Below, in pieces: positions 8,761-53,968 of a DNA stretch of 64,000 bases. Every line of letters begins with the position of its first letter. Position 1 is the stretch's first letter. This stretch comes from Chitinophaga pinensis. GTDB taxonomy: Bacteria; Bacteroidota; Bacteroidia; 2-12-FULL-35-15. The stretch lies in NCBI GenBank assembly GCA_945885475.1, contig CAMCYR010000009.1, positions 16,062 to 80,061 on the forward strand. The letters run 5' to 3'. Below the pieces are notes generated by a model. That model was not told the origin of the DNA and searched no databases. It saw only the letters and a list, made by a program, of their open reading frames with translations. A program made the position numbers and the translations under genes.

Positions 8761-8761
8761 G

Positions 8762-8795
8762 GTGAACAGAATAATTCTATTCACATCATTTTATT
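8762..8795 (+). terminator. Candidate rho-independent terminator after amidase gene
   Basis: Imperfect inverted repeat gtgaacagaat/attctattcac immediately after stop codon followed by T-rich tract. Confidence 0.35.
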
Positions 8796-10792: not shown

Positions 10793-11024
10793 TTGTGACT
10801 TATTAATTGACTGTTTAGGATTCGTGCGATAAGTTAATTTTAGTTCTATTTCTTTTTGTTTGAGAAATAATTAATATCGGGCAAAGCTATTTTTATAAAA
10901 ATAGGCCGCTGATGACTCAACAATTACTATTTACAGAGAAAATCATTCCTCAGCATTATAATCATTGAAATTTAGATTCTTTTAGAATTATCAAAAAAGC
11001 CTAATCTCTCTATTTAAAATAGGT

Positions 11025-15836: not shown

Positions 15837-16585
15837 AACAAATTTAGAAAAATTGATAACAAGTAACCGAAAATATTTTAATAAAAAAAAATTTAAGATT
15901 AAGTAATTTGGAGCCTTTAACTATTTATTTGAAATAAAAGTACGTAGGCAAAACAAACATGATAAAATTTCAAATTTATTTAATATTCATACTACTTAAA
16001 AATAAATGCACCACACTCGTGGAACAATATCCAAAAGCCAATTTACAAAAAAGCACTTGAAAACGACCAGTCAAAAAAGAAAACCATAAAATACGGGATA
16101 TTCATTTTTAGTGCGCTGAAAGGTCAACGTTGGAATAAACCTCAAACAAACTTATTGACTTAAAAATTGGTTTATTATAGCTGAAGGATCAAAGAATTAC
16201 TATAGATAATTGATTTAGTAATTCTAAGTTCATCTTATACAGTTAAAAAACAGAAGTAAAAAGAAAAAAAATTATAATTTAATTAAAAGAAGAATAGTCT
16301 TCGAACTGCTTACGACTCCCAAGTAAATTCAAATTTCTGAAACTATTTTTTTTAGAAAAAACTGTTAATAAAAGCAAAGAAAATCCCAAAACGAATCCGC
16401 GATTCCCAATTCGGGAATCCGATTGTAACAAAAGCCCACAAGATACTGAATATCAATAGATTAATAGGTGGCGTTTTATTTGGATGTAGAGTCTGAAATA
16501 TAGTAACAAATAAAAAGCACATTCTAAATTTGCCTACTAACCCTATACTGGTTAAAAAAACAAGTATTGGGAAATCGTACAAATT

Positions 16586-19500: not shown

Positions 19501-19747
19501 ATTCGCGAACCATTTTTTTTCTCTCCATAAAGGAGATAGTCTATACATGTTCACAGATGGCTATGTTGATCAATTTGGGGGAGGAAATGAAAAAAAATTC
19601 TCTACTAAAAGGTTGAAAGAAACTCTAGAAAGCATGCAGCAATTGGAAATGGATAAACAATCTTCGGAATTATCATCAGTCATCAGTGATTGGAAAGGAA
19701 CCAATGAACAAGTAGATGACATATTAATCATAGGAATTAAAATATAA
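16586..19747 (+). CDS. Sensor protein: two-component-regulator beta-propeller repeats + Y_Y_Y domain + TM helix + PP2C/SpoIIE-type serine phosphatase
   Basis: 1053 aa; >12 'GLxxNxVxxIxxDxxGxxWxGT' propeller repeats; single TM 'WWFISISILLGMSSIYIFV'; C-terminal 'SGDFYWF...FAVADCTGHGVPGAFMSMIG...DGYVDQFGG' PP2C phosphatase motifs. Confidence 0.85.
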   Translation: MIKIKKYTLSVLLIIILATSYSQSFNFKNYNTKSGLIGTNVNGIYQDSKGYIWFAVQGGLSRFDGSQFRNFTKENGLIGNDVTSIVGDKRGNIWIGTTEGISKYDGVSFKNYSTKNGLVDNFIRNVFIDNNDQLWVATDNGGVSKLNKETFENFTIATGLLTNTVFAITQDKKGNYWFATNSGICKYNGNEIINFLNQKNISGKEFFSILIDSEGSIFFAGEIGDGFIKYSNGKFEKKSFPEYLPKNSRIFSMMEDKHGSIWFSSDNDGIIKYDKKDFYTYNEKNGLSSNQVYAIKDDYEGNIWIGTTNGGADKLNNESFAAFTEKDGLSANKIASVYKNKDALFIGTQGTGLNIFTKGFYNFKQEIKELKNEKIFSIAENKKNEIWIGTEKSGIYVLEKKENNYSIKKHIPILLNKSLGLVDKIIFDKNGNTWISTYGNGAFLITISGEIKNYSTETDFPSNNLLTIHEDKKGNIWFGSIDVGAIKYDGKKFIIINEKLGLSNNAVWSITEDENDNIFLGTGEGGINCVNGKNITKIDRSDGLCSNFIATLNWDSFEKVIWVGTNNGINKLKLGSNLKPLSIQYYSEEEGFKGTEVTSCSQDKDGLVWFATINGVYRYDRKFDLPNKSAPKLVLTEILLDYKNVDWKNYCDSVDIRTNIPKSLVLAYNKKHLTFNFRALTTDNVKYTFILLGQDSEWSPLSSLSEANFSNIIPGRSYQFKLRAVNSNGIWSDEIVSFEFKINSPWWQTWWFISISILLGMSSIYIFVKLRTNKLAKEKKVLEKNVAERTFELSVALKEINDSINYAKIIQHSILPLSDEIHLDLPQSFVYYEPKNVVSGDFYWFHKKNKKLYFAVADCTGHGVPGAFMSMIGSSLLNEIFNENNNPDAAEILNLLHSRVRKVLKQDRYDVKSQDGMDISLVIIDNEEMKLNYAGAKRPLYLFRKEDYGYQFIEAKADKQSIGGHQNENDFKFANHFFSLHKGDSLYMFTDGYVDQFGGGNEKKFSTKRLKETLESMQQLEMDKQSSELSSVISDWKGTNEQVDDILIIGIKI

Positions 19748-19801
19748 TTAAACCCATCACTTTACTAAACATTAAATAAAACTTTTTAATTATTTCATAT
19801 T

Positions 19802-22800
19802 ATGAAACTAAAATTACTTACTATTTTTTACGTCTGTTCTTTTTTAGCAGTAAACGCTAAAAATTTTGATGAGAAGGCTACTATATTAAATTTAAATACT
19901 TCTTCTAATGAGGTTATTTATGGACTGAAAATTTCTCCACTAGCCTGCACTATTACTGGTTCCATTTCATCCCAATCGAATGTAACGTGTTTTGGAGGGA
20001 ATAATGGCACTGCTGAAATTAATGCATCCGGAGGAACGGGTGCACTAACCTATGACTGGACACCGGGAAACCCAATAGGAGATGGCACACCAAGTGTATC
20101 AGGATTAACAGCTGGCACATGGACTTGCACGGTTACTGATATAAACAGTTGCAGCTTTTCACAAACCGTTAATATCAACGAACCAACTCCTATAAATCTT
20201 GCTTTTTTTTCACAAACAGATGTTTCCTGTTATGGAGGAAGTAATGGTGAATTATCTATTTATGCTATTGGGGGAACTGGAACACTGTTGTATGACTGGA
20301 CTCCTGGTTCCTTTCCAGGTGATGGAACACCTAATGTTACTGGTTTATATGCTGGTACATGGATTTGTAATATTACAGACGACAATAACTGTACTAAAGC
20401 AGAAGTGTTTATTATTAATGAACCTCCACCAATAGTTATTAATACAACTTTACAAACAAACGTTTCTTGTAATGCCGGAAATAATGGCGCAACTTCCGTT
20501 TCTGTAAGTGGAGGATCAACTGGAGGATATGTTTACAACTGGACGCCTGGAAATCCAAGCGGCGATGGCACAGAAAGCATTACCGATCTAACGGCTAATA
20601 CATGGACATGCACAGTAACAGATGGAATCGGATGCTTGGGGTCACAAACAATTATTATCACCGAACCTTCAATACTTCTTGTTTCTGCTTCATCGCAAAC
20701 AGCTGTTTCTTGCAACTCTGGAAACGATGGATCAGCTACTGTAACAAGTTCGGGAGGAACGGGATCTATTGCTTTCGATTGGAGTCCAGGAAGTCCTTTC
20801 GGTGATGGATCAGCAAATGTTAGCAACTTAAGTGCTGGCACATATACCTGCACCGTTTCTGATGCAAACGCTTGCGCTGCTTCCGAAACATTTACTATAA
20901 ATGAACCATCAGCTATTAGTGCATCCCAATCTATTTCTATTTGTGCCGGACAATCGATTACAGTTGGCAGTAGCACCTATTTATCTTCAGGAATATACAC
21001 GGATATATTAATGGCTTCTAATGGCTGCGATAGTTCAGTTATTACGAATTTAACTATTCTTCCAGTTGTTACGAGTGCTGGTTTTTCATCTAGTATTTCC
21101 GGAATGACTGTCGCTTTTTCTAACACTGGAATTGATGCAACCAATTACTACTGGGACTTTGGAGACGGCTCTTCATCCACAGCAGCTAATCCAACTCACA
21201 CCTATAATTACGGAGGTAATTTCAATGTCTGCCTTATCGCTTCGAATGGTTGCTCTTCCGAAACCGTTTGCCAACTCATTACTATTGTCTGCATTGCTCC
21301 CCTTGCAAGCTTCAGCTCAAACATAAATGGCTTGTCATTAAATTTCATAAGCACTAGTTCAAATGCTGCAAATTTTAATTGGAATTTCGGAGATGGTAAT
21401 TTTTCAACGAATGAAAATCCTAATTATGTTTATTATGCAGCAGGAACCTATACTGTTTGCCTAAACGTGAGCAATGCCTGCGGAACCTATTCTACCTGCG
21501 ATACTGTTACTGTAAATTGTGTATCACCCATCGCAAACTACAGTTCATCCGTAAGCGGTTTAACAGCAACGTTTATTAACACCTCTTCCAATGCAGCAAG
21601 TGTTTCTTGGAACTTTGGAGATAGTAACATATCTAGTTTAAACAACCCTGTACATGTCTATTCAAATCCGGGAACATATACCGTTACATTAATTGTAAGT
21701 AATGGTTGCGGAACAGATTCTATTGCACAGACGGTGATTGTGAACTGCGCATTGCCGGTTGCAAATTTTATATCTTCTCAAACTGGCTTAACAGCAGAAT
21801 TTGTGTCTACATCTACTAATGCTTCAACATTTCAATGGGATTTTGGTGATGGCGCAACCAGTATTTCTCCCTTTCCTCCGCCTCACCTCTACCCGTCAAC
21901 AGCGGCATATACGGCCTGCTTAATTGCTAGCAATGGTTGTGGAGCAGATACGCTTTGTAATGCGCTAAATATATGTACACCGCCTGTTGCATCCTTCAAC
22001 TCTAACTATACAGCACTTACGGGTATTTTTACAAATACAACGCCTTCGTCTTCTGGAAATTCATATTTATGGACATTTGGTGATGGGACTGCAACAAATT
22101 TTGTCAACCCAACACATCAATTTGGTCTATCAGGCAACAACACTATTTGTTTGACCGCAACAAACAGCTGTGGTACAAACACATTTTGTTTGACAGATAC
22201 ACTATTCTGTGCTCCATTTATGGATCAGGGAATATGTATGGTAACGGTAGATACCGCCAACAATCACAACATTGTATATTGGGACAAAACAGGATTGACG
22301 GGCGTTGATAGTTTCAGAATTTACAGAGAAGTGGCAACGAGTGTATGGTCGCATATTGCCTCAGTTGCTTTCGCAGATTTAAGTGAATATCACGACAACG
22401 TAGCAGATGCTGCTGTAAGTCAATGGGCATATAAAATTGCTATTTTAGATACATGTGGAAATGAATTACCACGGAGTTTATATCATTATACAATACATCT
22501 TCAAGTGTTAGGTGGTGGTAATTTACAATGGAGTCTTTATTCCATAGAGGCCACAGCAAATCCAGTTAATTTTTATCAGGTGTATCGGGACGACTTCGGT
22601 ACGGGTAATTTTTTACCGATTAGTTTAACCATACCTGGTACATTTACTTCCTATACCGATATTAATTTTGCATCGTTTCCACTTGCAGATTATATGGTGC
22701 AGGTTGATTGGAATATTTCTTGTACGCCCACGCGCATAGCAATCAATACCTCACACTCCAATATTCGTCACCAATCTATCTCTGTCATAGGAATTTCTGA

Positions 22801-23044
22801 GAATGATCGCGCTTCAGCAGTTACTATTTTTCCTAATCCGGCTAACGACAATGTGATGATTGAAGTTGAAAACCTTATTGGTCAAGAGCTAAAAATAATG
22901 AATGCATTGGGAGAACTTATTTTTAATACGAAGATAAAAGATAAGAAAACGGCAGTTGATATTTCTTCTTTTTCTAATGGAATTTATTCAATTCAAATTG
23001 AAACAGAAAATGGAAGAATTGTAAAAAAATTGGTGAAAAACTAA
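19802..23044 (+). CDS. T9SS cargo protein: 4 SprB repeats + Cys module + ~6 PKD domains + type-A CTD
   Basis: 1080 aa; SprB repeats 'CxGGxNGxA...GGTGxxxYDWTPGxPxGDGT...LxAGTxTCTVTDxNxC'; PKD 'WDFGDG...NPTHTY...'; C-terminal 'IFPNPANDNVMIEVENL...GIYSIQIETENG' Por_Secre_tail. Confidence 0.85.
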   Translation: MKLKLLTIFYVCSFLAVNAKNFDEKATILNLNTSSNEVIYGLKISPLACTITGSISSQSNVTCFGGNNGTAEINASGGTGALTYDWTPGNPIGDGTPSVSGLTAGTWTCTVTDINSCSFSQTVNINEPTPINLAFFSQTDVSCYGGSNGELSIYAIGGTGTLLYDWTPGSFPGDGTPNVTGLYAGTWICNITDDNNCTKAEVFIINEPPPIVINTTLQTNVSCNAGNNGATSVSVSGGSTGGYVYNWTPGNPSGDGTESITDLTANTWTCTVTDGIGCLGSQTIIITEPSILLVSASSQTAVSCNSGNDGSATVTSSGGTGSIAFDWSPGSPFGDGSANVSNLSAGTYTCTVSDANACAASETFTINEPSAISASQSISICAGQSITVGSSTYLSSGIYTDILMASNGCDSSVITNLTILPVVTSAGFSSSISGMTVAFSNTGIDATNYYWDFGDGSSSTAANPTHTYNYGGNFNVCLIASNGCSSETVCQLITIVCIAPLASFSSNINGLSLNFISTSSNAANFNWNFGDGNFSTNENPNYVYYAAGTYTVCLNVSNACGTYSTCDTVTVNCVSPIANYSSSVSGLTATFINTSSNAASVSWNFGDSNISSLNNPVHVYSNPGTYTVTLIVSNGCGTDSIAQTVIVNCALPVANFISSQTGLTAEFVSTSTNASTFQWDFGDGATSISPFPPPHLYPSTAAYTACLIASNGCGADTLCNALNICTPPVASFNSNYTALTGIFTNTTPSSSGNSYLWTFGDGTATNFVNPTHQFGLSGNNTICLTATNSCGTNTFCLTDTLFCAPFMDQGICMVTVDTANNHNIVYWDKTGLTGVDSFRIYREVATSVWSHIASVAFADLSEYHDNVADAAVSQWAYKIAILDTCGNELPRSLYHYTIHLQVLGGGNLQWSLYSIEATANPVNFYQVYRDDFGTGNFLPISLTIPGTFTSYTDINFASFPLADYMVQVDWNISCTPTRIAINTSHSNIRHQSISVIGISENDRASAVTIFPNPANDNVMIEVENLIGQELKIMNALGELIFNTKIKDKKTAVDISSFSNGIYSIQIETENGRIVKKLVKN

Positions 23045-23073
23045 AAAGCTTATAAATTAAAAACGACAACTAT

Positions 23074-26000
23074 TTGAACAAAATGCAACTGAAACTGAAA
23101 TTATTTTTTGCTTTACTTACTGTTGTGACTTTTTCTGCAACTGCACAAAATTTTGCTTGGGCAAAAGCGATGGTTGGAACTGGGACAACGGATGAAGGTT
23201 CACAATCGGTTGCCATTGACGCTGCAGGCAATGTATACACTACAGGACAATTCTTCGGAACAGTTGATTTTGATCCGGGCGCAAGTACCTTTAATTTGAC
23301 TTCTACTGGTTTGGAAGATATTTTCATCTCGAAGCTGGATGCTTCCGGGAATTTTTTATGGGCTAAAAAAATTGGGGGAACTGGTACTGATGTTGGCTGG
23401 AAAATTGCTCTTGATGCAAGCTCAAATGTAGTTGTATCTGGTTATTTCAGATACACAGCTGATTTTGACCCGGGTTCGGCTGTTTATACTTTATCACAAG
23501 TTGGAACAGCTGCTTATGCTGATATTTTTGTGCTTAAACTTGATACAAATGGGAATTTTGTTTGGGTAAAACAATTTGGGGCATCATCCGTTGATGATGA
23601 TGCATATGGTTTATATATCGACAATTTAAGTAATATATATATAACAGGTTACTTCTGGGGAACAATAGATTTTGACCCAGGAGCGGGAATAGCCAATTTA
23701 ACACCTACTGGAAATGCTGATATCTATATTTTAAAATTGGATGCTTCGGGAAGTTTTGTGTGGGCAAAAAAAATGGGCGGAACCCTATTAGATGAAGGAA
23801 AAGGCATTTATGTGGATGGTTTAGGCAATGTATTCACCGTTGGTGTTTTTAGAGGAACAGTAGATTTTGATCCGGGTTCAGGTACTGCAAATCTAATATC
23901 GGCAGGCAGTGATGATATTTTTATTTCGAAGCTCGACGCTTCAGGAAATTTTAACTGGGCAAAATCAATCGGTTCTACCGGAATTGATTTCGCGTCTTCT
24001 ATTTCTGTGGATGCTTCGGGAAATATATTTATATCCGGTTATTTTAACGGTACAGTAGATTTTGATCCCGGCTCAGGAATTTCAAATTTGACATCCGCAG
24101 GTATTGAAGATATTTTTGTTTGTAAACTTGATGCCACCGGAAATTATAGTTGGGCAAAACGAATTGGAAGTACTTCAACTGATAAAGCAGTCGCTTCAAT
24201 TGTTGACGCATCCGGAAACATTCAAATAACTGGTTCTTATTCAGGAACCGTAGATTTCGATCCTGGCGCAACAACAACAAATCTCAGCTCTGCAGGTCTA
24301 ACAGATATTTTCGTATGCACGCTTGATGCTTCCGGTAATTTCCTTAGAGCAAAAACAATAGGTGGTACAGGAAATGACGCTGGAAATTCAATTGCAGTGT
24401 CTAGTTCAGGAAGTAGTTATATTTCTGGAGATTACAGCGGAACAGTAGATTTTGATCCAAGTGCAAGTACCTTTAACTTAAGTTCAGGTGGTGGTAAGGA
24501 TATTTTTGTAATGAAATTTTTAGCACCCTGTAACATTACAAACTCGAGTTCCCAAACGAATCTAACTTGTAATGGAATATGTACTGGATCAGCTACAATG
24601 ATTCCTAGTGGCGGAACATCTCCTTACACCTACTCATGGGCACCTTCAGGAGGTTCAGCAGCAACGGCAAATTCATTATGTGCAGGAAGTTATACCTGTA
24701 CCGTTACCGACAATGTCGGCTGTACGTCAACCAGAACGTATATCCTTACACAGCCGACTGCAATAAGTGTTGGTGCGTCTTTGCAATCAAACGTAATTTG
24801 TAATGGGGGAAACAATGGTGCAGCGAGTGTAAATGCAAGCGGAGGAACGGGAACATTAACTTATAATTGGACACCTGGAAATCCAACAGGCGATGGAACA
24901 GCCAGTGTTTCTGGTTTAACTGCCGGAACGTGGACGTGCACAGTAACGGATGCTAATGGCTGCAGTGGCTCTCGCACATTTACAATCACGCAACCACCAG
25001 CAATTGCTGTAAGCATTGCTTCACAAACAAATACAACATGTAATGGTGGTACGAATGGGGCTGCCAGTGTTACAGCTTCTGGGGGTGTAGGAATTTTGGC
25101 ATACGACTGGATGCCAGGAAACCCAACGGGAGATGGCACCAATAGCATTTCAGGGATATTCGCCAATACGTGGACTTGCTATGTAAGCGATGAAAATGGT
25201 TGTACTGCTTCACAAGCAATCACAATTACTCAGCCACCTGCAATTAGCGTTCTTACTTCATCTATCTCTCCCCCATCTTGCAATGGTGGAAATAATGGAT
25301 CCGCTTCCGTATCTGCATCTGGAGGAACAGGAAGTTTATCATACAACTGGACACCAGGAAACCCAACGGGTGATGGAACAACCATTGTTTCGGGTCTAAC
25401 TGCAGGATCTTGGACCTGCACTGCAACAGACGGAAGTGGGTGTACAGGAGCAAGAACAATAAATCTAACACAACCAACTGCAATTTCAGTTGCTGCTGTT
25501 TCCCAGACAAATGTTTCTTGTAACGGAGGTAGCAATGGATCAGCAAGTGCTTCGGCTTCGGGAGGTACAGGTACTTTATCTTTCAACTGGACGCCCTATG
25601 GAGGAACAGCTTCAACGGCAACCGCATTAACTGCCGGGACCTATACGTGTACCGTTACCGATGCAAATCTGTGTTCAGCATCCAGAACATTTATAATCAC
25701 GCAACCTACCGCGATCGTTGTGAATGCCGTTTCACAAACAAACGTTTCCTGCAATGCCGGAAATAATGGCGCTGCAACGATATCCGCTTCTGGAGGAACA
25801 GGTGCATATACATACAATTGGACGCCATTCGGAGGAACGGGAATAACGGCTTCAGGTTTAATTGCAGGAACATATACCTGCACCGTTACCGATGCAAATG
25901 CATGTTCGGCGAGTAGAATATTTACGATCACGCAACCAACAGCGATTGTTGTAAATGCAGTTTCTCAAACAAACGTTTCCTGCAATGCAGGAAATAATGG

Positions 26001-29000
26001 CGCTGCAACGATAGCTGCCTCAGGCGGAACAGGGGCATTCACCTATAATTGGACGCCAGGAAATCCTACAGGCGATGGAACTGTTGGTGTTTCTGGACTA
26101 ACTGCAGGATCGTGGACCTGCACGGTTACGGATGCAAATGCATGTTCTGCTTCACGCATTATTACAATCACTCAACCTACTCCTATTTCTGTTGGAATTT
26201 CTTCCCAAACAAATGTTTCTTGTAACGGAGGAAGTAATGGCGCTGCTTCCATATTCGCTTCAGGTGGTACTGGCGCACTCACTTATAACTGGACTCCAGG
26301 AAATCCAACGGGAGATGGCACAGCAAGTGTTTCGGGATTAACTGTAGGATCGTGGACCTGCACTGTAACGGATGCAAATGGATGTAATTCCACACAAATA
26401 TTCACGATTACTCAACCAACAGTAATTAATATTTCTGCAACAGCACAAAGCAATGTATCTTGTAACGGCGGAAACAATGGAACGATTACAGTAAACGCAA
26501 CTGGCGGAACAGGTGCTTTCACTTATAACTGGACGCCATCCGGAGGAACGGGAATTACAGCTACTGGTTTAATTGCAGGAACATATACCTGCACCGTTAC
26601 CGATGCAAATCTTTGTACAGCCTCAAGATCATTTACGATCACGCAGCCAACAGCTATTGTTGTAAATGCAGTTTCACAAACAAACGTTTCCTGCAATGCA
26701 GGGAATAATGGCGCTGCAACGATATCTGCTTCTGGCGGAACAGGTGCATTCACCTATAATTGGACGCCAGGAAATCCTTCAGGCGATGGAACAGTCAGTG
26801 TTTCGGGATTAACTGCCGGTTCATGGACCTGCACGGTTACCGATGCAAATGCATGTTCTGCTTCACGCATTATTACAATCACAGAGCCTACTGCTATTTC
26901 AGTAGTAGCTGTTTCCCAAACAAATGTTTCTTGTAACGGAGGAAGTAACGGTGCTGCAGCTGTTTCTGCTTCAGGCGGAACAGGTGCATATACTTACAAT
27001 TGGACGCCAGGAAATCCTACAGGAGACGGAACAGCAAGTGTTACTGGACTAAGTGCTGGATCGTGGACCTGCACGGTTACCGATGCAAATGGTTGTGCAG
27101 CATCCAGAACATTCACAATCACGCAACCATCAGTTATTGTTGTGAATGCCGTTTCACAAACAAACGTTTCCTGTAATGCAGGAAGCAATGGCGCTGCAAC
27201 GATATCTGCTTCAGGTGGAACAGGGGCATTCACATACAATTGGACGCCATTCGGAGGAACGGGAATTACGGCTTCAGGTTTAATTGCAGGAACGTATACT
27301 TGTACCGTTACCGATGCAAATGCATGTTCGGCGAGTAGAACATTTACGATCACACAACCAACTGCTATTGTTGTGAATACAGTTTCACAAACAAACGTTT
27401 CCTGCAATGCAGGAAGTAATGGCGCTGCAACGATATCTGCCTCGGGCGGAACAGGGGCATTCACCTATAATTGGACGCCAGGAAATCCTACAGGCGATGG
27501 AACTGTTAGTGTTTCGGGACTTACTGCAGGTTCATGGACTTGCACGGTGACAGATGCAAATGGATGTTCTGCTTCACGCATTATTTCAATCACAGAACCT
27601 ACTCCTATTGCTGTTGTTGCTTTTTCCCAAACAAATGTTTCTTGTAATGCAGGAAATAATGGCGCTGCAACGATATCAGCTTCTGGAGGAACAGGCGCAC
27701 TCACTTATAATTGGACTCCAGGAAATCCAACGGGAGATGGAACAGCAAGTGTTACTGGATTAACTGCCGGCTCATGGACCTGCACGGTTACTGATGCAAA
27801 TGCATGTTCTGCTTCACGCATTATTACAATCACAGAACCTACTGCTATCTCCGTTGCTGCTGTTTCCCAAACAAATGTTTCGTGTAACGGAGGAAGCAAT
27901 GGATCAGCTACTGCATCTGCTGCAGGAGGAACGGGTACTTTATCTTTCAACTGGACGCCATACGGGGGATCTGCTTCATCGGCAACCGGATTAACTGCAG
28001 GAACTTACACCTGCACCGTTACCGATGCAAATGCTTGTTTGGCAAGTAGAACATTTACGATCACAGAACCAACTGCAATTTCAGTTCTGTCTGCTTCCCA
28101 AACAAATGTTTCCTGCAATTCCGGGAACAATGCAGCGGCAACGATAGCTGCTTCAGGCGGAACAGGTGCTTACACATACAACTGGACGCCATTCGGAGGA
28201 ACGGGAATTTCAGCTTCAGGTTTAATTGCAGGAACATACACCTGCACTGTTACTGATGTAAATCTTTGTTCATCATCACTTACATTTTCTATAACAGAGC
28301 CAGCAGCAATTTCGGTAACGATAGTTTCTCAAACAAACGTTTCCTGCAATGCAGGAAATAATGGCGCTGCAACGATATCTGCTGTTGGAGGAACAGGTGC
28401 ATTTACTTACAATTGGACACCAGGAAATCCTACCGGAGATGGAACAGCAAGTGTTTCTGAACTAAGCGCAGGGGCTTTTACCTGCACTGTTACAGATGAA
28501 AATGGGTGTTCGGCATTCCGAATTATAACTATCACAGAACCTACTCCTATTTCTGTTGGAGTTTCTTCTCAAACAAATGTTTCTTGTAACGGAGGAAGTA
28601 ATGGTTCAGCTTCGGTATTCGCTTCAGGTGGTACTGGTAGTATTTCCTTCAACTGGCTTCCCTTTGGAGGCAATTCAGCATTCACAACGGGATTATCCGC
28701 AGGAACTTATTCTTGTAATATTTCGGATGCAAATGGCTGTTCAGCAATTCAACTGTTTACTATTTTAGAACCAACAGTAATTATAGTTGCTCCCGTTTCC
28801 CAAACCAATATCTCTTGTAATGGAGGCAATAACGGAGCTGCAGCGGTTTCTGCTTCGGGAGGAACAGGTGTTTTATTATTTAATTGGGCTCCTTCTGGCG
28901 GTTCTGCCCCAGCAATAACAGGGCTTACGGCCGACACGTATACCTGTACCGTTTCTGATGAGAATGGATGCAGCGCAACACAAACTTTTATCATTACTGA

Positions 29001-30405
29001 ACCTTCGCAAATAATAGTTTCTTCTTCTTCACAAAACAATGTATCGTGTAATGGAGGAAGCAATGGTGATGCGAGTGCAAGTGCAACAGGTGGCACAGGA
29101 TTGCTCAGCTACAGCTGGACTCCCTTTGGAGGTTCAACATCATCCGCAACAGGATTAAGTGCTGGAATTTATACTGTTACAGCCACGGATGAAAATGGTT
29201 GTAGCTCTTCACTCCAATTCGACATTTCAGAACCTACCACAATTGTTGTGAACACTGTTTCGCAAACAAATAATTTGTGTAATGGTGGAAATAATGGTAA
29301 TGCTGCTATTTCGGTTATTGGAGGAATTGCAGGATACACTTACGATTGGACGCCCGGAAATCCGACAGGTGATGCAAGCAATTCTATCAGTAATTTAACA
29401 GCAGGAATCTGGAATTGCTCTGTAACAGATGCGAATGGATGTGTTACCAACCATACCGTTTCAATTACAGAACCTGCAGCGATAATTATAAATCAATCTA
29501 ACATTATTTGTGCGGGTGCTTCTATTACTGTAGGAGTAAATACATATTCCAGCTCAGGAGTTTACACCGATGTATTAATTGCAGCGAATGGTTGCGATAG
29601 TACTGTAATTACTAATTTAACAGTGAATCCCGCACTATCAGCATCACAAACCATTGTTCGTTGCGCAGGTGAATCAATCACAGTTGGAGTAAATACGTAT
29701 TCAACGTCAGGAGTTTATACCGATGTATTAAATGCAGTGAATGGTTGCGATAGTACTGTAACAACGAATTTAACTGTGAATTCTCCTATTTCAGGATCTC
29801 AAACAATTATTCGCTGTGCAGGTGAATCCATTACGGTTGGATTAAATACCTATTCCATCTCAGGAGTTTACACCGATGTATTAACTGCAGCGAATGGGTG
29901 CGATAGTACCGTAACAACTAATTTAACGGTGAAACCTTCCATAAACATTGCTACTTCTCTTTCAGGAACAACAATCACTGCAATAGCAAATCCAGCGACT
30001 TATCAATGGATAGATTGCAATAATAGTAATGTGATAATTGCTGGTGCAACTAATCAATCTTTTGTTTCAACAATGAATGGTAGCTATGCGGTTATTGTTA
30101 CACAAAATGGATGCAGTGATACGAGTGCATGCGTGAACATTACAAATACAGGAATAAATGGATCAATTCAGAACAGTGAATTATTAATTTATCCAAATCC
30201 AACGAACGAAAAAGTAATTATCGAACTTGGAAATTTGATCGGACAACATTTAAAAATAATGAATGCTATTGGTCAGATTGTTTATGCTGCTGAAATAAAA
30301 AATACAAAAATAGAAATCGATCTTTCTGATTTTGCGAACGGAATATATACAATTCAGGTGCAAACAGCAAAGGGTATCGTTCTGAAAAAATTGGTAAAGA
30401 ATTAA
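23074..30405 (+). CDS. Giant T9SS cargo protein: ~9 SBBP beta-propeller repeats + ~21 SprB repeats + 3 Cys modules + type-A CTD
   Basis: 2443 aa; N-terminal repeats 'GxDxxxxIAxDxxGNxYxTGxFxGTxDFDPG...DIFIxKLDASGNFxWAK'; SprB repeat array; C-terminal 'LIYPNPTNEKVIIELGNL...GIYTIQVQTAKG' CTD. Confidence 0.85.
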   Translation: MNKMQLKLKLFFALLTVVTFSATAQNFAWAKAMVGTGTTDEGSQSVAIDAAGNVYTTGQFFGTVDFDPGASTFNLTSTGLEDIFISKLDASGNFLWAKKIGGTGTDVGWKIALDASSNVVVSGYFRYTADFDPGSAVYTLSQVGTAAYADIFVLKLDTNGNFVWVKQFGASSVDDDAYGLYIDNLSNIYITGYFWGTIDFDPGAGIANLTPTGNADIYILKLDASGSFVWAKKMGGTLLDEGKGIYVDGLGNVFTVGVFRGTVDFDPGSGTANLISAGSDDIFISKLDASGNFNWAKSIGSTGIDFASSISVDASGNIFISGYFNGTVDFDPGSGISNLTSAGIEDIFVCKLDATGNYSWAKRIGSTSTDKAVASIVDASGNIQITGSYSGTVDFDPGATTTNLSSAGLTDIFVCTLDASGNFLRAKTIGGTGNDAGNSIAVSSSGSSYISGDYSGTVDFDPSASTFNLSSGGGKDIFVMKFLAPCNITNSSSQTNLTCNGICTGSATMIPSGGTSPYTYSWAPSGGSAATANSLCAGSYTCTVTDNVGCTSTRTYILTQPTAISVGASLQSNVICNGGNNGAASVNASGGTGTLTYNWTPGNPTGDGTASVSGLTAGTWTCTVTDANGCSGSRTFTITQPPAIAVSIASQTNTTCNGGTNGAASVTASGGVGILAYDWMPGNPTGDGTNSISGIFANTWTCYVSDENGCTASQAITITQPPAISVLTSSISPPSCNGGNNGSASVSASGGTGSLSYNWTPGNPTGDGTTIVSGLTAGSWTCTATDGSGCTGARTINLTQPTAISVAAVSQTNVSCNGGSNGSASASASGGTGTLSFNWTPYGGTASTATALTAGTYTCTVTDANLCSASRTFIITQPTAIVVNAVSQTNVSCNAGNNGAATISASGGTGAYTYNWTPFGGTGITASGLIAGTYTCTVTDANACSASRIFTITQPTAIVVNAVSQTNVSCNAGNNGAATIAASGGTGAFTYNWTPGNPTGDGTVGVSGLTAGSWTCTVTDANACSASRIITITQPTPISVGISSQTNVSCNGGSNGAASIFASGGTGALTYNWTPGNPTGDGTASVSGLTVGSWTCTVTDANGCNSTQIFTITQPTVINISATAQSNVSCNGGNNGTITVNATGGTGAFTYNWTPSGGTGITATGLIAGTYTCTVTDANLCTASRSFTITQPTAIVVNAVSQTNVSCNAGNNGAATISASGGTGAFTYNWTPGNPSGDGTVSVSGLTAGSWTCTVTDANACSASRIITITEPTAISVVAVSQTNVSCNGGSNGAAAVSASGGTGAYTYNWTPGNPTGDGTASVTGLSAGSWTCTVTDANGCAASRTFTITQPSVIVVNAVSQTNVSCNAGSNGAATISASGGTGAFTYNWTPFGGTGITASGLIAGTYTCTVTDANACSASRTFTITQPTAIVVNTVSQTNVSCNAGSNGAATISASGGTGAFTYNWTPGNPTGDGTVSVSGLTAGSWTCTVTDANGCSASRIISITEPTPIAVVAFSQTNVSCNAGNNGAATISASGGTGALTYNWTPGNPTGDGTASVTGLTAGSWTCTVTDANACSASRIITITEPTAISVAAVSQTNVSCNGGSNGSATASAAGGTGTLSFNWTPYGGSASSATGLTAGTYTCTVTDANACLASRTFTITEPTAISVLSASQTNVSCNSGNNAAATIAASGGTGAYTYNWTPFGGTGISASGLIAGTYTCTVTDVNLCSSSLTFSITEPAAISVTIVSQTNVSCNAGNNGAATISAVGGTGAFTYNWTPGNPTGDGTASVSELSAGAFTCTVTDENGCSAFRIITITEPTPISVGVSSQTNVSCNGGSNGSASVFASGGTGSISFNWLPFGGNSAFTTGLSAGTYSCNISDANGCSAIQLFTILEPTVIIVAPVSQTNISCNGGNNGAAAVSASGGTGVLLFNWAPSGGSAPAITGLTADTYTCTVSDENGCSATQTFIITEPSQIIVSSSSQNNVSCNGGSNGDASASATGGTGLLSYSWTPFGGSTSSATGLSAGIYTVTATDENGCSSSLQFDISEPTTIVVNTVSQTNNLCNGGNNGNAAISVIGGIAGYTYDWTPGNPTGDASNSISNLTAGIWNCSVTDANGCVTNHTVSITEPAAIIINQSNIICAGASITVGVNTYSSSGVYTDVLIAANGCDSTVITNLTVNPALSASQTIVRCAGESITVGVNTYSTSGVYTDVLNAVNGCDSTVTTNLTVNSPISGSQTIIRCAGESITVGLNTYSISGVYTDVLTAANGCDSTVTTNLTVKPSINIATSLSGTTITAIANPATYQWIDCNNSNVIIAGATNQSFVSTMNGSYAVIVTQNGCSDTSACVNITNTGINGSIQNSELLIYPNPTNEKVIIELGNLIGQHLKIMNAIGQIVYAAEIKNTKIEIDLSDFANGIYTIQVQTAKGIVLKKLVKN
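24527..29490 (+). repeat. In-frame tandem array of ~21 x ~240-bp SprB-repeat coding units, many near-identical at the nucleotide level, with higher-order ~1.4-kb periodicity
   Basis: Direct reading: e.g. units beginning ~25696 and ~27120 align with roughly 90 % or more identity by eye (not computed) across >450 nt; recurring 4-unit pattern (TPYGG / TPFGG / GNPTGDGTV / GNPTGDGTAS variants). Confidence 0.85.
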
Positions 30406-30463
30406 TTTATAATTATAGAAACTAATTGATTACTAATTAAAGTTGTAAAAAGAAAATAGTTAA

Positions 30464-32926
30464 TTGATCGAAAAAAAAATGAAAAAGATAATTGTCGAAA
30501 AAAAATCAACTCTAGGAATATTCGTGTTACTCCTATTTATTTTACTAAACAATTTGGTTATAAATGCAGCAACTACGTTTCAGAAAACATTTGGCGGCAC
30601 ATCTGATGAATACGGCTATGCGACCGAACAATTAAGTGATGGAGGATATATCATGTGTGGAAGAACAATCAGTTTCGGAGTTGGTGGATTCGACAATTAT
30701 TTAATTCGATTAAATGCCAATGGAGATACCTTATGGACAAAAACATATGGCAATACAGGTTACGATGAAGCACAATCTATCAAACAAACGAGTGACGGCG
30801 GGTTTATTATGGTTGGGCAAACGGCAACTGTAGATTATGCTGGCGATGTGTACCTCGTAAAAACGGATGCGAATGGTGTACTGGTTTGGTCGACTGCATT
30901 TGGAACGGCAACTAAATTTGATTTCGGTTATTCTGTTCGACAAACGTCTGACGGTGGATATATTATTGCTGGACTAACCAATAGCACAGGTGCTGGACTT
31001 AGGGATGTTCTACTAATAAAAACAAATTCGACAGGTGTTTTACAATGGTCAAAAACCTATGGCGGCGCGGCTGACGACGAAGCCAGGTCTGTTGAAGAAA
31101 CAGCAGATGGAGGATTTATAGTATCCGGATTTACGCAAAGCTATGGTTCTGGCTACCAAATGTATCTTATCAAAACAAATTCAACTGGAAATGTTACATG
31201 GTCGAAAACCTTTGGTGGTGGCGGCTTGGAACTAGGCTATTCAGTAAAACAAACTTCTGATGGCGGGTATGTTCTATTAGGATATTCCGACTCGTATGGC
31301 TCAGGACTTTTAGATGTTCTGCTTGTAAAACTCACATCAACAGGAAGTATATCCTGGAGCAAAACCTACGGAGGCACTGCCGACGATTATGGACTGTGTA
31401 TATATATTACTATCGATGGTGGATATATTATTTCTGGTAGAACATCAAGTTATGGTGCCGGTGGAGGTGATTATTATTTAATAAAAACAGATGTGAATGG
31501 CGTTCACCAATGGTCGAAAGCATATGGTGGAACAGCTGTTGATCAAGCTGGAAATGTTCGACAAACGGCGGATGGAGGCTATATACTAACAGGCTACACA
31601 ATGAGTTTTGGTGCAGGGATAAGAGAGGCTTATCTTGTAAAAACAGATGCTACTGGTGCATCAGGATGTAATGAATTTACGGCTACGACTCAAACAACTT
31701 CAGCCACTGTAGCAAACAGTACAGGTGCCACAGAAGGTCTTGGTCTAAGTGCAGTAAGCCCAGTTACGGCAACAAGAAGAGTAAAGCCTGTTGTCACTAC
31801 TTCATGTTCTTCAAGTGCTTGTACTTTAACAATTGCCTCCTTTGCACAAACAAATGTTACTTGCAATGGAAGTACGAATGGAACTTCTTCCATTTCAAGT
31901 ACAGGTGGCGTTGGTACCTTAACTTACAACTGGACACCTGGAAATCCAATAGGAGATGGGACAGCAAGTGTTACAAATTTAAGCGCTGGAACTTATAGTT
32001 GCACAGTTACGGATGCAAATGGTTGCACGGCATTGCAAACAGTTACAATTACTCAACCGAATGTACTTGTTTCAACTATAACTTCACAAACAAACGTGAG
32101 TTGTTTTGCAGGAACAAATGGAGCTGCAAGTATTTTAGTAAGTGGTGGAACAACTGCATATAGTTACAACTGGACGCCCGGAAATCCAACTGGAGACGGA
32201 ACAACAAGTGTTACAAATTTAAGCGCTGGAAGTTATAGTTGCACCATCACAGATGCAAACGGATGCGCGGCATCGCAATCAGTTACAATCACGCAAGCTG
32301 CTGCCATAAATAACGCACAAAATATTTCTATTTGTGCCGGACAAACTCTTGTTATTGGAACAAATAGCTATTCAAGTTCAGGAATTTATACGGATGTGTT
32401 AGCTGCAATAAATGGATGCGACAGCACTGTAACAACTACTCTCACTGTAAATCCTTTAATAGATTTAACAACTACTACATCTGGAAATTCAATCACTGCA
32501 AATACAAGTCCAGCGAACTATCAATGGATTGATTGTAATAATGGAAACAGTTTACTTGTTGGAGCAACATCGCAAGTATATACTTCAGCAGCGAATGGAA
32601 ATTATGCTGTAATTATTAGTCAAAATGGATGCAGTGATACGAGTGCTTGTGTAACTATTACAACTACCGGTATTGTATTAAAACCAAACAATGAATACTT
32701 ACAGATTTTTCCTAATCCAACAACGTCAACAATAACGTTAAAAGGACTTTCAGCTGATAGTGATATACATATCATGAATGCATTGGGACAAACACTATTT
32801 TCTAAAACGATCAATCAAAAGGATGTAGAAAAAATCATTGATCTTTCTGATTTTAAAAACGGGATGTATTATATACAAATAGAGAATAAAGAGACGACCG
32901 TATCAAGAAAAGTAATAAAGGAATAA
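30464..32926 (+). CDS. T9SS cargo protein: ~8 beta-propeller-type ~50-aa repeats + S/T linker + 2 SprB repeats + two Cys modules + type-A CTD
   Basis: 820 aa; repeats 'YGGxxxDxAxSVxQTSDGGYIxxGxTxSxGxGxxDxLLIKTNSTGxxxWSKTYGG'; C-terminal 'QIFPNPTTSTITLKGL...GMYYIQIENKET' CTD. Confidence 0.85.
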   Translation: MIEKKMKKIIVEKKSTLGIFVLLLFILLNNLVINAATTFQKTFGGTSDEYGYATEQLSDGGYIMCGRTISFGVGGFDNYLIRLNANGDTLWTKTYGNTGYDEAQSIKQTSDGGFIMVGQTATVDYAGDVYLVKTDANGVLVWSTAFGTATKFDFGYSVRQTSDGGYIIAGLTNSTGAGLRDVLLIKTNSTGVLQWSKTYGGAADDEARSVEETADGGFIVSGFTQSYGSGYQMYLIKTNSTGNVTWSKTFGGGGLELGYSVKQTSDGGYVLLGYSDSYGSGLLDVLLVKLTSTGSISWSKTYGGTADDYGLCIYITIDGGYIISGRTSSYGAGGGDYYLIKTDVNGVHQWSKAYGGTAVDQAGNVRQTADGGYILTGYTMSFGAGIREAYLVKTDATGASGCNEFTATTQTTSATVANSTGATEGLGLSAVSPVTATRRVKPVVTTSCSSSACTLTIASFAQTNVTCNGSTNGTSSISSTGGVGTLTYNWTPGNPIGDGTASVTNLSAGTYSCTVTDANGCTALQTVTITQPNVLVSTITSQTNVSCFAGTNGAASILVSGGTTAYSYNWTPGNPTGDGTTSVTNLSAGSYSCTITDANGCAASQSVTITQAAAINNAQNISICAGQTLVIGTNSYSSSGIYTDVLAAINGCDSTVTTTLTVNPLIDLTTTTSGNSITANTSPANYQWIDCNNGNSLLVGATSQVYTSAANGNYAVIISQNGCSDTSACVTITTTGIVLKPNNEYLQIFPNPTTSTITLKGLSADSDIHIMNALGQTLFSKTINQKDVEKIIDLSDFKNGMYYIQIENKETTVSRKVIKE

Positions 32927-32944
32927 ATTTGCTTAACACTAATT

Positions 32945-32994
32945 CTATGATAAACATAGCTTTCAATTATAGTTGAACCTTATGTTTATCATAG
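32945..32994. terminator. Long-loop hairpin (perfect 14-bp stem ctatgataaacata / tatgtttatcatag, 22-nt loop) between convergent genes
   Basis: Inverted repeat read directly at 32945-32958 and 32981-32994 between cargo gene (+) and purL (-) 3' ends. Confidence 0.45.
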
Positions 32995-33003
32995 ATTAAA
33001 GAA

Positions 33004-35232
33004 TTATTTTAACAATTCACCCAATGCGCTGTCGAAGATCTTTTTAGCAGCGGCAACAGTACCAAATGATTCGTCATCAACAATCATTTCGTTTCCTTTC
33101 ACATCACCAAGATATTCGAATTCAGCTCGGGAAGCCATCATCAGGTCGATAAATTTATCTTCATCCGATTTTTTAACCGAAACAATAACGCGGCTCTGAG
33201 CTTCCCCAAATAAAAATGCATCTTTACGGATTTCGGAATCAAAACTAATATCGAAGCCCAAACCATTTGTCATAGCACTTTCTAGTAAGGTAATAAATAA
33301 TCCACCATCGGCACAATCGTGAGCAGATTGAACAACACGTTCTTTAATGATTGTCTTTACAGCCTTTTGAACTTCGTATTCTTCATCTAAATTAAAGAAC
33401 GGAGCAGGGGTATTTTTTACATTGTGAAAAGAATATAAATATTCAGAAGAATTAATACAATTTTTAGAACTACCGATTAGGTAAATAGAATCACCCTCAT
33501 TTTTAAAATTCAAGGTCATACGGTTCGCCTTGTCTTTCATCACTCCCAACATTCCGATTGTAGGTGTAGGAAAAACAGGACCTTCATAAGAAGATTGATT
33601 GTAAAAACTTACATTTCCGCCGGTAACAGGGGTTTCAAACTTAATACACGCGCTTCCCATTCCTTTAATAACATTCACAAATTGCCAATATACTTCAGGA
33701 TTATAAGGATTTCCAAAATTAAGACAGTTGGTAATTGCTGAAGGCTCAGCACCACTGCAAACGATATTACGTGCCGCTTCGGAAACAGCAATTGCACATC
33801 CAACTTCAGGATCGGCATTCACATAGCGTGCATTACAATCTACTTTCAGAGCAATCGCCTTTTTTGTACCTTTAATATTCACGATTGCAGCGTCAGAAGG
33901 CGCATTTGTACTCATGTTTGCCGTACCAACCATTGAATCGTATTGATTATAGACCCATTGTTTGGATGCGATATTCGGATGGGAGATCAAAAAATCTGCG
34001 ACAGCTTTCAGATCTTTCGGAACCTCAACTGAATCGATATTAAACTTTTGAGCTTCTTTAAAATAAGCTGGCTCTTTGTAATCTCTGTGATATACCGGTG
34101 CACCGCCACCTAAAACAAGATCAAAAGCAGGAACATCAGCAACCAATTCATCACCAACATAAAACTTAATACGTTTTGTGTCTGTAACTTGTCCGATCAA
34201 CGCACAATTTAAATCCCATTTAGCAAATACTTTTTCAACATCTTTCTCTCTTCCTTTTTTCACAACGATCAACATGCGCTCCTGAGATTCGGAAAGAAGA
34301 ATTTCGAATGGTTGCATATTCGCCTGACGAGTAGGCACTCTGTCCAACCAAATATCCATTCCATGTTCGCCCTTTGCAGACATTTCAGAGGTTGAGCAAG
34401 TGATACCTGCCGCACCCATATCCTGCATACCAATAACAGCACCCGTTTTTATTACTTCTAATGTTGCTTCCAAAAGTAATTTTTCTTGAAAAGGATCCCC
34501 AACCTGAACAGCTGGCAGATCTTTTGCTGAATCTTCAGTAATATCCGCAGAGGCGAATGTTGCTCCGTGAATACCATCTTTTCCGGTTGCTGATCCAACA
34601 ATAAAGACAGGATTACCAACACCGTAAGAAGTCGCAGAAACCGTTTCACCGGCTTTTACGATACCTGCACTCATCGCATTCACCAGTGGATTCACATTGT
34701 AGCAGTCATCAAAAAACACTTCACCGCCAACACAAGGAATACCAAAAGCATTACCATAATCTCCAATTCCTTTTACAACTCCCTTTACAAGCCATTTTGT
34801 TTTTTCCAATTTAATATCACCAAATCGCAGTGAATTCAGCTGTGCAATCGGGCGAGCACCCATTGTAAAAATATCACGATTGATCCCTCCTACGCCTGTT
34901 GCTGCTCCTTGGTATGGTTCCAAAGCACTCGGATGATTGTGAGATTCAATTTTGAAAGCGCAACCTAAACCATCACCTATATCAACCAATCCCGCATTTT
35001 CTTCACCCGCTTCAGCAAGAATATAAGGTCCTTTTTTAGGAAGTTTTTTCAACCAAACAATTGAATTCTTATAAGAACAGTGCTCACTCCACATGACTGA
35101 AAAGATGCTTAGTTCGGTAAAATTTGGCACACGCCCAAGTATCGCTATGATCTTTTCATATTCATCTTGTAATAAGCCTAATTTCTTCGCTGTTTCAACG
35201 GTCGTTAATTGATCTTGTGCAGTTGTTGACAT
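33004..35232 (-). CDS. purL: Phosphoribosylformylglycinamidine synthase subunit PurL
   Basis: 742 aa; '[14 protein letters not shown]...' and AIR-synthase-related domains typical of PurL. Confidence 0.95.
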
Positions 35233-35496
35233 ATATTTTATTAATTATTATTTTATATTAAGCTATTCCGTTTAAGAATCGGGCCGCAAACATCCTTTTT
35301 GAAGAGTTCAAATTTACGCAAAAACCACTCTATTGCACAGAATAATTTATTTGGAGTTTTCAACAGTTTTTGAATTACTATATTTGGACAAAATATAACT
35401 AGCAAAAGCATATTCCGTTTATTTTTCTGATTTTTACGAATTACGCGTTTTTATCAGCAAAATAGCTTTCTCAGCTCGTTCAACAGCAAAAAAAAC

Positions 35497-41439: not shown

Positions 41440-41498
41440 TGTGTTTGCGATTACAAAAATATAAAATGAGCGCATTGAGTCAGATAAAAATCAGTGAC

Positions 41499-49897: not shown

Positions 49898-49908
49898 CTC
49901 TTAATACT

Positions 49909-52759: not shown

Positions 52760-52765
52760 TAAAAT

Positions 52766-53941: not shown

Positions 53942-53968
53942 AAAATAAAAAACTTTATACAAAACACT

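Follow-up and report, generated by a model that had tools for sequence, protein, structure and literature searches.

The described proteins that come closest to the locus studied here are type IX secretion system (T9SS) cargo. SprB of Flavobacterium johnsoniae, a 6497-amino acid protein of the PF13573 repeat family that is exported in a T9SS-dependent manner and thought to form a surface filament, carries a type B sorting domain and needs the shuttle SprF, encoded alongside it (PMC12618676). Type A sorting domains are collected by the PorV shuttle, and a version of SprB fitted with a type A sorting domain is exposed on the surface but immobile, or is released (PMC12618676). The lectin-domain adhesin RemA of F. 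johnsoniae, which also takes part in gliding, is a type A surface protein that uses PorV and is in part anchored and in part shed into the medium (PMC12618676). An AmyB-HaloTag fusion gave no surface signal (PMC12618676), and type A cargo is described as anchored to anionic lipopolysaccharide (PMC9143113). GhpA of Aureispira combines an N-terminal head, a stem of immunoglobulin (Ig)-like repeats with disulfides and a T9SS signal; it is heptameric, counts 5898 amino acids and 52 repeats, has adjacent PorP/PorE homologues as its proposed anchor and acts with a type VI secretion system (T6SS; subtype iv) in predation (10.1101/2024.01.29.577165). Here we analyze three tandem genes, A, B, and C, at 19802-32926 of a 64-kb stretch of Chitinophaga pinensis contig CAMCYR010000009.1 (the window, to which all positions refer unless stated), which follow a sensor-phosphatase gene, U. 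The closest genomes are metagenome-assembled genomes (MAGs) from uncultured freshwater Bacteroidota. We find that A, B, and C are ordinary members of a well known kind of T9SS cargo and imply no new mechanism: generic TIGR04183/PF18962 proteins (annotated as "T9SS type A sorting domain-containing protein") have the same signal peptide, beads, and C-terminal type A domain and show no essential difference. What sets the locus apart from such generic cargo is the trio, its order and its place, with a PP2C sensor gene on one side and purL on the other, a combination that we found in this genus-level lineage alone.

Three forward-strand open reading frames (ORFs), 19802-23044 (starting with ATG), 23074-30405 (TTG), and 30464-32926 (TTG), encode 1080, 2443, and 820 amino acids, in exact agreement with the coordinates and lengths of a first-pass annotation. 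B is called with 2437-2440 amino acids in relatives that have its 21-unit form, and C with 815 amino acids in those that have its two-unit form; because all relatives are called so, the true starts are probably ATG 23083 in B (2440 amino acids) and ATG 30479 in C (815 amino acids). Pfam and NCBIfam searches define the products as T9SS type A cargo made from a shared bead set with different heads, as that annotation had proposed (Table 1). The matches of A, B, C, and U are far beyond chance, and all the families that had been expected (SprB, SBBP, PKD, and Por_Secre_tail/TIGR04183) score above their cut-offs. A contains four SprB repeats (E = 6e-30), five PKD_4/PKD domains (E = 7e-64; PKD_4, PF18911, scores 212 bits and PKD, PF00801, 119 bits, in five stretches each and above the cut-offs), and a Por_Secre_tail domain (E = 9e-17). 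B contains an SBBP match (E = 6.5e-15; PF06739, 55.2 bits with a cut-off of 20.5), 21 SprB repeats (E = 1.4e-168), and a Por_Secre_tail domain (E = 1.2e-17); an SBBP model of the LipL53 family aligns to residues 32-482 with 119 bits, under its equivalog cut-off. C contains two SprB repeats (E = 1.5e-11), a Por_Secre_tail domain (E = 6e-14), and a weak DUF5122 match. The propeller repeats of C score 44.6 bits with TIGR02608 (delta-60; cut-off 76.5) and 17.2 bits with PF17164 (DUF5122; cut-off 27), and many homologues of this head carry PF17164 or PF26094. The Pfam counts of PF13573 (4, 21, and 2) reproduce the 4, ~21, and 2 SprB repeats noted earlier, and Pfam together with motif counts (five PKD domains in A, seven blades in B, and seven in C) confirms that the N-terminal parts differ, with a PKD array, an SBBP propeller, and a propeller of ~50-residue repeats. 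The same short Cys modules had been reported from all three proteins: this holds for a 51-residue module, but a second one of ~65 residues is confined to B and C.

Table 1. Features of the U-A-B-C locus, with positions in the window
Feature	Position	Strand	Description or evidence
Gene A, 1080 amino acids	19802..23044	+	signal peptide, 4 SprB-type Ig units, 51-residue module, 5 PKD, ~200-residue region, type A sorting domain
A: four 80/81-residue SprB-type Ig-like units, residues 57-377	19970..20932	+	repeat analysis
A: 51-residue two-Cys module, residues 378-428	20933..21085	+	
A: five PKD domains	21086..22201	+	W.FGD motifs at residues 451, 527, 603, 679, 757
A: region, residues 801-1005	22202..22816	+	no Pfam family, no PDB sequence match
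A: type A T9SS C-terminal sorting domain, residues 1009-1080	22826..23041	+	Pfam, NCBIfam
Gene B, 2443 amino acids (probably 2440)	23074..30405	+	signal peptide, SBBP propeller, 21 SprB-type units, 3x 51-residue module, 1x ~65-residue module, type A sorting domain
B: SBBP beta-propeller head, 7 blades of ~65 residues	23161..24543	+	DFDP motifs at residues 65-459; 195-nucleotide periodicity
B: 21 SprB-type Ig-like units, 77 or 80 residues each	24550..29499	+	repeat analysis
B: 51-residue two-Cys modules, three in tandem	29500..29958	+	153-nucleotide period
B: ~65-residue four-Cys Ig-like module, immediately before sorting domain	29959..30168	+	
B: type A sorting domain, residues 2372-2443	30187..30402	+	Pfam, NCBIfam
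Gene C, 820 amino acids (probably 815)	30464..32926	+	signal peptide, ~52-residue-repeat propeller, 2 SprB-type units, 51-residue module, ~65-residue module, type A sorting domain
C: seven ~52-residue propeller repeats	30566..31663	+	DGG[YF] motifs at residues 59-370; resemble delta-60/DUF5122, under curated cut-offs
C: two 80-residue SprB-type units	31844..32323	+	3 or 4 units in some relatives
C: 51-residue module, then ~65-residue module	32324..32683	+	AlphaFold2: two small beta-sandwich beads, block pLDDT ~89-97
C: type A sorting domain	32705..32923	+	Pfam, NCBIfam, AlphaFold2 model
U: sensor-phosphatase	16586..19747	+	signal/transmembrane segment, Reg_prop propellers, Y_Y_Y, transmembrane segment, cytoplasmic SpoIIE/PP2C
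Bacteroidota-type -7 box TAAATTTG	16525..16532	+	pattern TAnnTTTG; ~55 nucleotides 5' of U
Perfect hairpin, 15-nucleotide arms	32944..32995		whole fold -22.6 kcal/mol; between convergent C and purL
Low-divergence tract, ~17 kb (3' part of U, A, B, C, purL)	18050..35100		synonymous divergence 5-10x below either flank

The type A sorting domains expected at all three C termini score 54.3, 44.2, and 48.0 bits with TIGR04183 (cut-off 23) and 61.6, 64.4, and 52.4 bits with PF18962 (cut-off 27) in A, B, and C, respectively. At the N termini we recognize Sec signal peptides (...FLAVNA|KN in A, ...TFSATA|QN in B, and ...LVINA|AT in C), which, judged directly from the sequence, have an n-region rich in K, then a hydrophobic core, with small residues ahead of the likely cleavage site. 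Pfam and NCBIfam detect neither a type B sorting domain (TIGR04131 or PF13585, CHU_C) nor a catalytic domain in A, B, or C. No PorP/SprF gene adjoins the trio, whose neighbors are the PP2C sensor gene and purL. The first-pass annotation had suggested a gliding-related function; in the sense of SprB this is unsupported, because the sorting domains are of type A and a cognate PorP/SprF gene is missing.

The SprB arrays have a strict period of 77 or 80 residues. Each unit contains three conserved Cys residues, of which C7 and C61 are invariant and C53 nearly so, and a short or long loop (TPFGGTG or TPGNPTGDGT). The 37-residue Pfam SprB model covers only the first, N-terminal half of this unit, and what had been listed as SprB repeats and as one short Cys module is therefore a single domain; the Pfam "SprB repeat" thus spans only half of the true Ig-like unit. 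An AlphaFold2 model of two consecutive units (predicted local distance difference test score (pLDDT) is 89.6) is all-beta and reveals tandem Ig-like domains. Foldseek searches of this pair against the PDB return tandem Ig-like adhesion modules, with IgLON, NCAM, intimin, phage Hoc, and Aureispira GhpA at 21-26% identity, and of the matches listed, the solved structure closest in sequence to the SprB-type units is the GhpA fragment 9flp, with the highest identity (26%). A profile of the unit also gives weak sequence matches to Ig-like decoration proteins of phages. The 51-residue two-Cys module is present in one, three, and one copies in A, B, and C and lies between the array and the sorting domain; the ~65-residue module contains four Cys residues and follows the pattern YQWxDCNNG...GAT.Q.YT...NG.YAV...NGCSDTSAC. 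Neither module matches a Pfam family even at E ≤ 10, nor does the region of A comprising residues 801-1005, for which PDB sequence searches also gave nothing meaningful. A model of residues 621-820 of C (pLDDT is 88.7) folds into three beta beads, for which GhpA fragments are the best PDB matches. Its sorting-domain bead, the only sorting domain that we modeled, superimposes on the sorting domain of NucA bound in the F. johnsoniae T9SS (8glk_D; TM-score is 0.83, root mean square deviation is 2.3 Å) and on that of mirolase (8qb1; TM-score is 0.73). Across the two fold searches the GhpA fragments 9flp, 9flw, 9flv, 9flu, and 9g8b take places from first to twenty-fourth, with identities of 13-26% and E-values between 5e-6 and 2e-4. 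A, B, and C are beads on a string, in which a head is followed by an Ig-like stalk, pre-sorting beads, and a type A signal.

We consider it likely that A, B, and C form static fibrils that are anchored by their C termini or partly shed and that carry a distal binding head. The proteins would be exported by Sec and then secreted by the T9SS, from genes that are probably transcribed together with U. By analogy with characterized type A cargo, the sorting domain would be passed from the SprA translocon to the PorV shuttle and then cleaved off, and the mature protein would stay on the cell surface via its C-terminal end or be released. The N-terminal head (in B an SBBP propeller, in C a propeller of ~52-residue repeats, and in A a PKD array together with SprB units) would be followed by a stalk of 77/80-residue SprB-type Ig-like units and by a pre-sorting cassette of 51- and ~65-residue modules. 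C-terminal attachment would therefore keep the head tens of nanometers away from the cell, where it could bind particles, polymers, or other cells. Several points weigh against this reading. The organism is uncultured, and expression, secretion, surface attachment, and binding of the three proteins are all predicted. Type A cargo may also be released enzymes or soluble proteins, and the propeller heads have no assigned ligand. The genes sprA, porV, porU, and gldKLMN lie outside the window, which holds only PorP/SprF-family and PorE-like genes, and the -7 box and hairpin listed in Table 1 are pattern matches only. Finally, unit counts from short reads are unreliable where exact repeats exceed the read length, and the 15-unit form of B discussed below may be an assembly collapse. 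Bacteroidota genomes routinely encode multi-domain type A cargo that contains SprB, PKD, and propeller beads, and the locus in itself matters little.

Alternatively, A, B, and C could be released as soluble binding proteins or enzymes, for example as lectin-like or hydrolytic propellers, which we regard as unlikely. Many type A cargoes are indeed released, as the AmyB-HaloTag fusion and the shed fraction of RemA illustrate (PMC12618676), and a trypsin-like protease is among the cargo encoded beside sensor-gene homologues; however, Pfam and NCBIfam find no catalytic domain in the trio, a free enzyme would have no obvious need for a stalk of 21 Ig-like beads, and the closest solved relative, GhpA, is a surface fibril. 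It is very improbable that the three proteins act as SprB-like motile gliding adhesins, which are loaded on a helical track and propelled along the surface. Such a role would fit the SprB repeats in all three, the PorP/SprF-family and PorE-like genes in the window, and the part that RemA, itself a type A adhesin, has in F. johnsoniae gliding (PMC12618676). Against it, the sorting domains belong to TIGR04183 (type A) and not to TIGR04131 (type B), the sole PorP/SprF gene (13598-14575, reverse strand) is paired with its own 188-residue type B mini-cargo 5 kb away, and the proteins (815-2440 amino acids) are 3-8 times shorter than SprB. We give hardly any credence to a GhpA-like multimeric grappling hook formed by B, and perhaps C, to catch other cells: GhpA fragments are found in both fold searches, with 9flp at 26% identity, and the plan of a head, a Cys-bearing Ig-like stem, and a C-terminal T9SS signal is the same (10.1101/2024.01.29.577165), but the low Foldseek TM-scores (0.4-0.45) reflect generic Ig tandems, B at 2440 amino acids is far from the size and repeat number of the heptameric GhpA, has a type A domain and no adjacent PorP/PorE-type anchor genes, and the window contains no T6SS gene.

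The 188-residue protein (14554-15120, reverse strand) combines a single SprB-type repeat with a sorting domain of type B (TIGR04131, 48 bits with a cut-off of 35), and its gene overlaps the start of the PorP/SprF-family gene (TIGR03519, 181 bits). Together they make up a minimal pair of type B cargo and cognate shuttle (13598-15120) on the strand opposite to the trio, flanked by genes for a TPR protein and a monofunctional transglycosylase, and kept in the sister-species assembly L001 with 88-90% amino acid identity. On the other side of the trio, a 937-residue protein (59503-62316, forward strand) resembles CHU_0125-family OmpA-like proteins (204 bits) and the T9SS protein PorE (169 bits), in both cases under the cut-off, and by this resemblance is possibly a T9SS-associated anchoring component.

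The trio had been proposed to be a family that diversifies locally by domain shuffling. We find instead that the shared modules occur throughout the phylum, that their order and architecture are fixed at the locus, and that the ratio of nonsynonymous to synonymous divergence (dN/dS) is below 1. Some local paralogy exists, since the sorting domain of A matches that of B better than any other, and vice versa (55.6% identity; 93 bits compared with at most 57 bits elsewhere). The sorting domain of C and the 51- and 65-residue modules are as close to proteins of other Bacteroidota (P0022, P0123, P0127, and P0129; 64-75% identity) as to the neighboring genes, and fragments annotated from MAGs of Flavobacteriales, Crocinitomicaceae, and Chitinophagales carry the same tail of one or more 51-residue modules, the 65-residue module, and a type A sorting domain. 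Word-indexed homologue searches with such short modules returned short fragments only; their spread became visible in exhaustive profile searches. A profile of the 65-residue module, run against 1.84 billion proteins, matches 15,781 representative ones at E ≤ 1e-10 and 27,136 when the threshold is relaxed to E ≤ 1e-3, with up to 77 tandem copies per protein and protein lengths of up to 7689 amino acids. The four top matches that we examined all belong to the type A T9SS cargo, and in two a Laminin_G_3 head precedes the module array. The module is a candidate for a new domain-family model; two very common bead modules, one of them in more than 27,000 representative proteins, are without a model in the Pfam copy searched. 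The propeller head of C is combined elsewhere with 1, 5, 6, or 11 SprB units, or with PKD domains, and with a type A or a type B sorting domain, and the plan of propeller, SprB units, and sorting domain is present in MAGs of Flavobacteriales, Cytophagales, and other Bacteroidota (P0026, P0044, and P0066). Given this spread of module, tail, and head, shuffling is old and phylum-wide and not ongoing at this locus.

We compared the locus in seven assemblies of two species, all of them metagenome assemblies: L001/L053, L057, and L058 represent a sister species, to which L056 probably also belongs (its C is identical and its right-flank genes are equal in length), and L054 and L060 represent the window's own clade. 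The order U-A-B-C-purL and the order of domains are constant in all assemblies of both species. Within the genus the genes are hence conserved single-copy orthologs with a fixed architecture, which speaks against the diversifying family suggested by the first-pass annotation; beyond the genus this conservation ends, as the cassette is absent, and the trio is missing beside more distant U homologues, which are 32-36% identical. dN/dS is 0.07-0.59 in every region of A, B, and C in three comparisons, a sign of purifying selection. Diversifying selection by substitution was considered and rejected, as the ratio stays below 1 in all head, stalk, and tail regions.

The variation in copy number that had been anticipated among relatives is found in the number of stalk units, which is 21, 17, or 15 in B and 2, 3, or 4 in C. 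A always has 1079-1080 amino acids and four units, B has 2440 or 2437 (21 units), 2126 (17 units), or 1966 amino acids (15 units), and C has 815, 895, or 975 amino acids for two, three, and four units, respectively. Core units 6-17 of the window's B share up to 91% DNA identity with each other and show a higher-order period of 711 nucleotides; identity to these core units is no more than 55-70% for the edge units of B and for those of A and C. In B of L057 and L058 (2615-9928 in each locus), units 11-13 are 100% copies of the same gene's units 5-7, forming an exact repeat of 704 nucleotides spaced by 1413 nucleotides. The B of L053 (4028-9928) is identical to that of L057/L058 at 5901 of 5901 aligned positions and lacks exactly one 1413-nucleotide period, either by a true deletion between the exact repeats or by collapse in short-read assembly; such repeats are a known source of assembly error (PMC6868369). 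The 17-unit allele of L054, on a 609-kb contig, is more credible because it differs from the window at two junctions that have no exact repeats. In C, the sister species has 693 nucleotides of perfect 240-nucleotide periodicity; two units are identical in L057 and L053 has a 92% identical pair, whereas the window, L054, and L058 have only two old units that are 68-77% identical. Recent tandem duplication and conversion are real, and some of the absolute counts are not certain. The stalks would evolve through unequal recombination and gene conversion among units, and the locus offers a clean natural case of stalk-length change by unit duplication and conversion as well as of short-read miscounting. 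In L056, a run of 100 N (6962-7061) interrupts B, which is called in pieces where the array breaks the short-read assembly, and the contig of L002 ends within the SprB units of A.

Comparison with the sister species reveals a tract of low divergence (Table 1). Synonymous divergence (dS) is 0.15-0.16 in A and B, 0.22 in C (0.145 over its first 221 codons), and 0.26 in purL, compared with 0.36-0.78 in U, the TPR gene, the type B mini-cargo, and PorP, 1.0-1.45 in the left flank, and 0.9-2.7 in the right flank. Three independent assemblies of the sister species give the same values. Nucleotide identity jumps from ~0.85 to at least ~0.95 near 18050, inside U, and declines from ~0.95 to ~0.81 over 34650-35400 at the right edge. 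Relative to L054 and L060, cassette and flanks have diverged to about the same extent. The simplest reading of these sequence comparisons is a ~17-kb homologous-recombination tract common to both species and fixed in the sampled assemblies; the whole block would have been exchanged between the two species, and recently, by homologous recombination. The window's B has a dS of 0.16 with the sister-species B and of 0.33 with that of L054, and at least B would therefore have moved after the window and L054 split.

It is highly unlikely that the low divergence from A to purL has a cause other than exchange, namely chimeric metagenome contigs or unusually slow synonymous change. The comparison genomes are indeed all metagenome assemblies, and purL is very conserved, with 99.6% amino acid identity to the sister species, but the pattern recurs in three independent assemblies from different samples, the tract takes in four and a half functionally very different genes as well as intergenic DNA, there is a step in identity within U, and GC3 (G+C content at third codon positions) and codon composition are like those of the flanks. 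With recombination as the preferred reading, an adhesin block and purL apparently passed from one species to another among uncultured bacteria that are abundant in lakes, which fits gene-specific flow at cell-surface loci.

purL (33004-35232, reverse strand) is the convergent gene 3' of C and encodes a 742-residue PurL of the subunit form (NF002290 equivalog, 960 bits); the amino acid identity of neighboring genes to the sister species is 72-91%. A, B, and C have a G+C content of 0.39-0.46, compared with 0.30-0.37 around them, which we attribute to amino acid composition, the proteins being rich in T, G, S, A, and N. Foreign DNA was considered as a cause and rejected, since the GC3 of the trio (0.24-0.27) is not above that of the flanks (0.22-0.34). 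ARAGORN finds no tRNA or tmRNA in the window and so gives no sign of an integration site, and PADLOC assigns no defense-system match to U, A, or C.

U had been described as a sensor-phosphatase gene directly upstream of the trio, and it ends 54 nucleotides before A. Pfam and NCBIfam identify five Reg_prop repeats (E = 7e-54), a Y_Y_Y domain, a transmembrane segment, and a SpoIIE/PP2C domain (SpoIIE, E = 5e-20). The PP2C domain is like that of SiaA/RsbU/SpoIIE-type phosphatases, and its best NCBIfam match is the biofilm regulator SiaA, of which U is not an equivalog (194 bits with a cut-off of 700). We take the periplasmic Reg_prop and Y_Y_Y sensor to resemble that of Bacteroides hybrid two-component systems. 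The window contains no STAS, anti-sigma, or other partner-switching gene for the PP2C domain. Spacers of 54 nucleotides (U-A), 29-38 nucleotides (A-B), and 58-73 nucleotides (B-C) separate the genes, and the -7 box upstream of U is the only one between 15837 and the start of C. The hairpin behind C is likely a bidirectional terminator that closes the unit, and from these sequence elements we infer that U, A, B, and C are transcribed as one. A scan for sigma-70 promoters and GC-rich terminators was discarded, as its counts did not exceed the shuffled expectation and the scan is unsuited to Bacteroidota.

The linkage of such sensors to cargo is recurrent, especially in near relatives, but not universal. 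Of six full-length PP2C homologues from reference genomes (L001, L003-L006, and L008), five directly adjoin type A cargo genes, the cargo having GEVED, SBBP, or unassigned domains; the exception is L008. We retrieved 80 metagenome loci with full-length U homologues, and in 7 of the 70 usable ones type A cargo lies within 700 nucleotides, one of the seven being the locus of the closest U homologue (49% identity). A universal link between sensor-PP2C genes and T9SS cargo is rejected by this low count. Cargo near the metagenome homologues is diverse (seven PKD_5 domains, a trypsin-like protease, CarboxypepD_reg, or SprB plus PKD), and cargo with SprB units is no commoner there than a rough, guessed and unmeasured background. 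A literature search for Reg_prop/Y_Y_Y-SpoIIE sensors linked to T9SS cargo returned nothing relevant. A functional coupling of U to A, B, and C is possible. A bolder proposal, which we regard as distinctly unlikely, is that U-A-B-C would be a self-contained operon for sensed adhesion, in which the PP2C sensor is coupled to the co-transcribed fibrils, for example by partner switching that tunes adhesion or aggregation; this unit would be exchanged between freshwater species by homologous recombination and sweep the recipient, and its stalk lengths would be rapidly retuned by gain, loss, and conversion of units.

Elsewhere in the window, a block at 5707-12626 is absent from the sister-species assembly L001, in which the flanking genes for the 188-residue protein and the transglycosylase adjoin. 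It encodes a cargo protein with Amidase_2, CUB, and type A sorting domains (5707-8760), a malate:quinone oxidoreductase (9380-10792), and a glutamate-synthase-domain protein (11025-12626, reverse strand). On the forward strand, a 443-residue ORF (35497-36828) has no Pfam or NCBIfam match and is conserved in all relatives, and a 266-residue ORF (41439-42239) has no NCBIfam match and orthologues annotated as OMP_b-brl_2. A gene for a MarR-family regulator followed by a fatty-acid beta-oxidation cluster (FadB-like, thiolase, and FadE-like) occupies 49445-55744 on the forward strand, with a protein of the 23S-rRNA-intervening-sequence family encoded between fadB and the thiolase gene (52348-52719).

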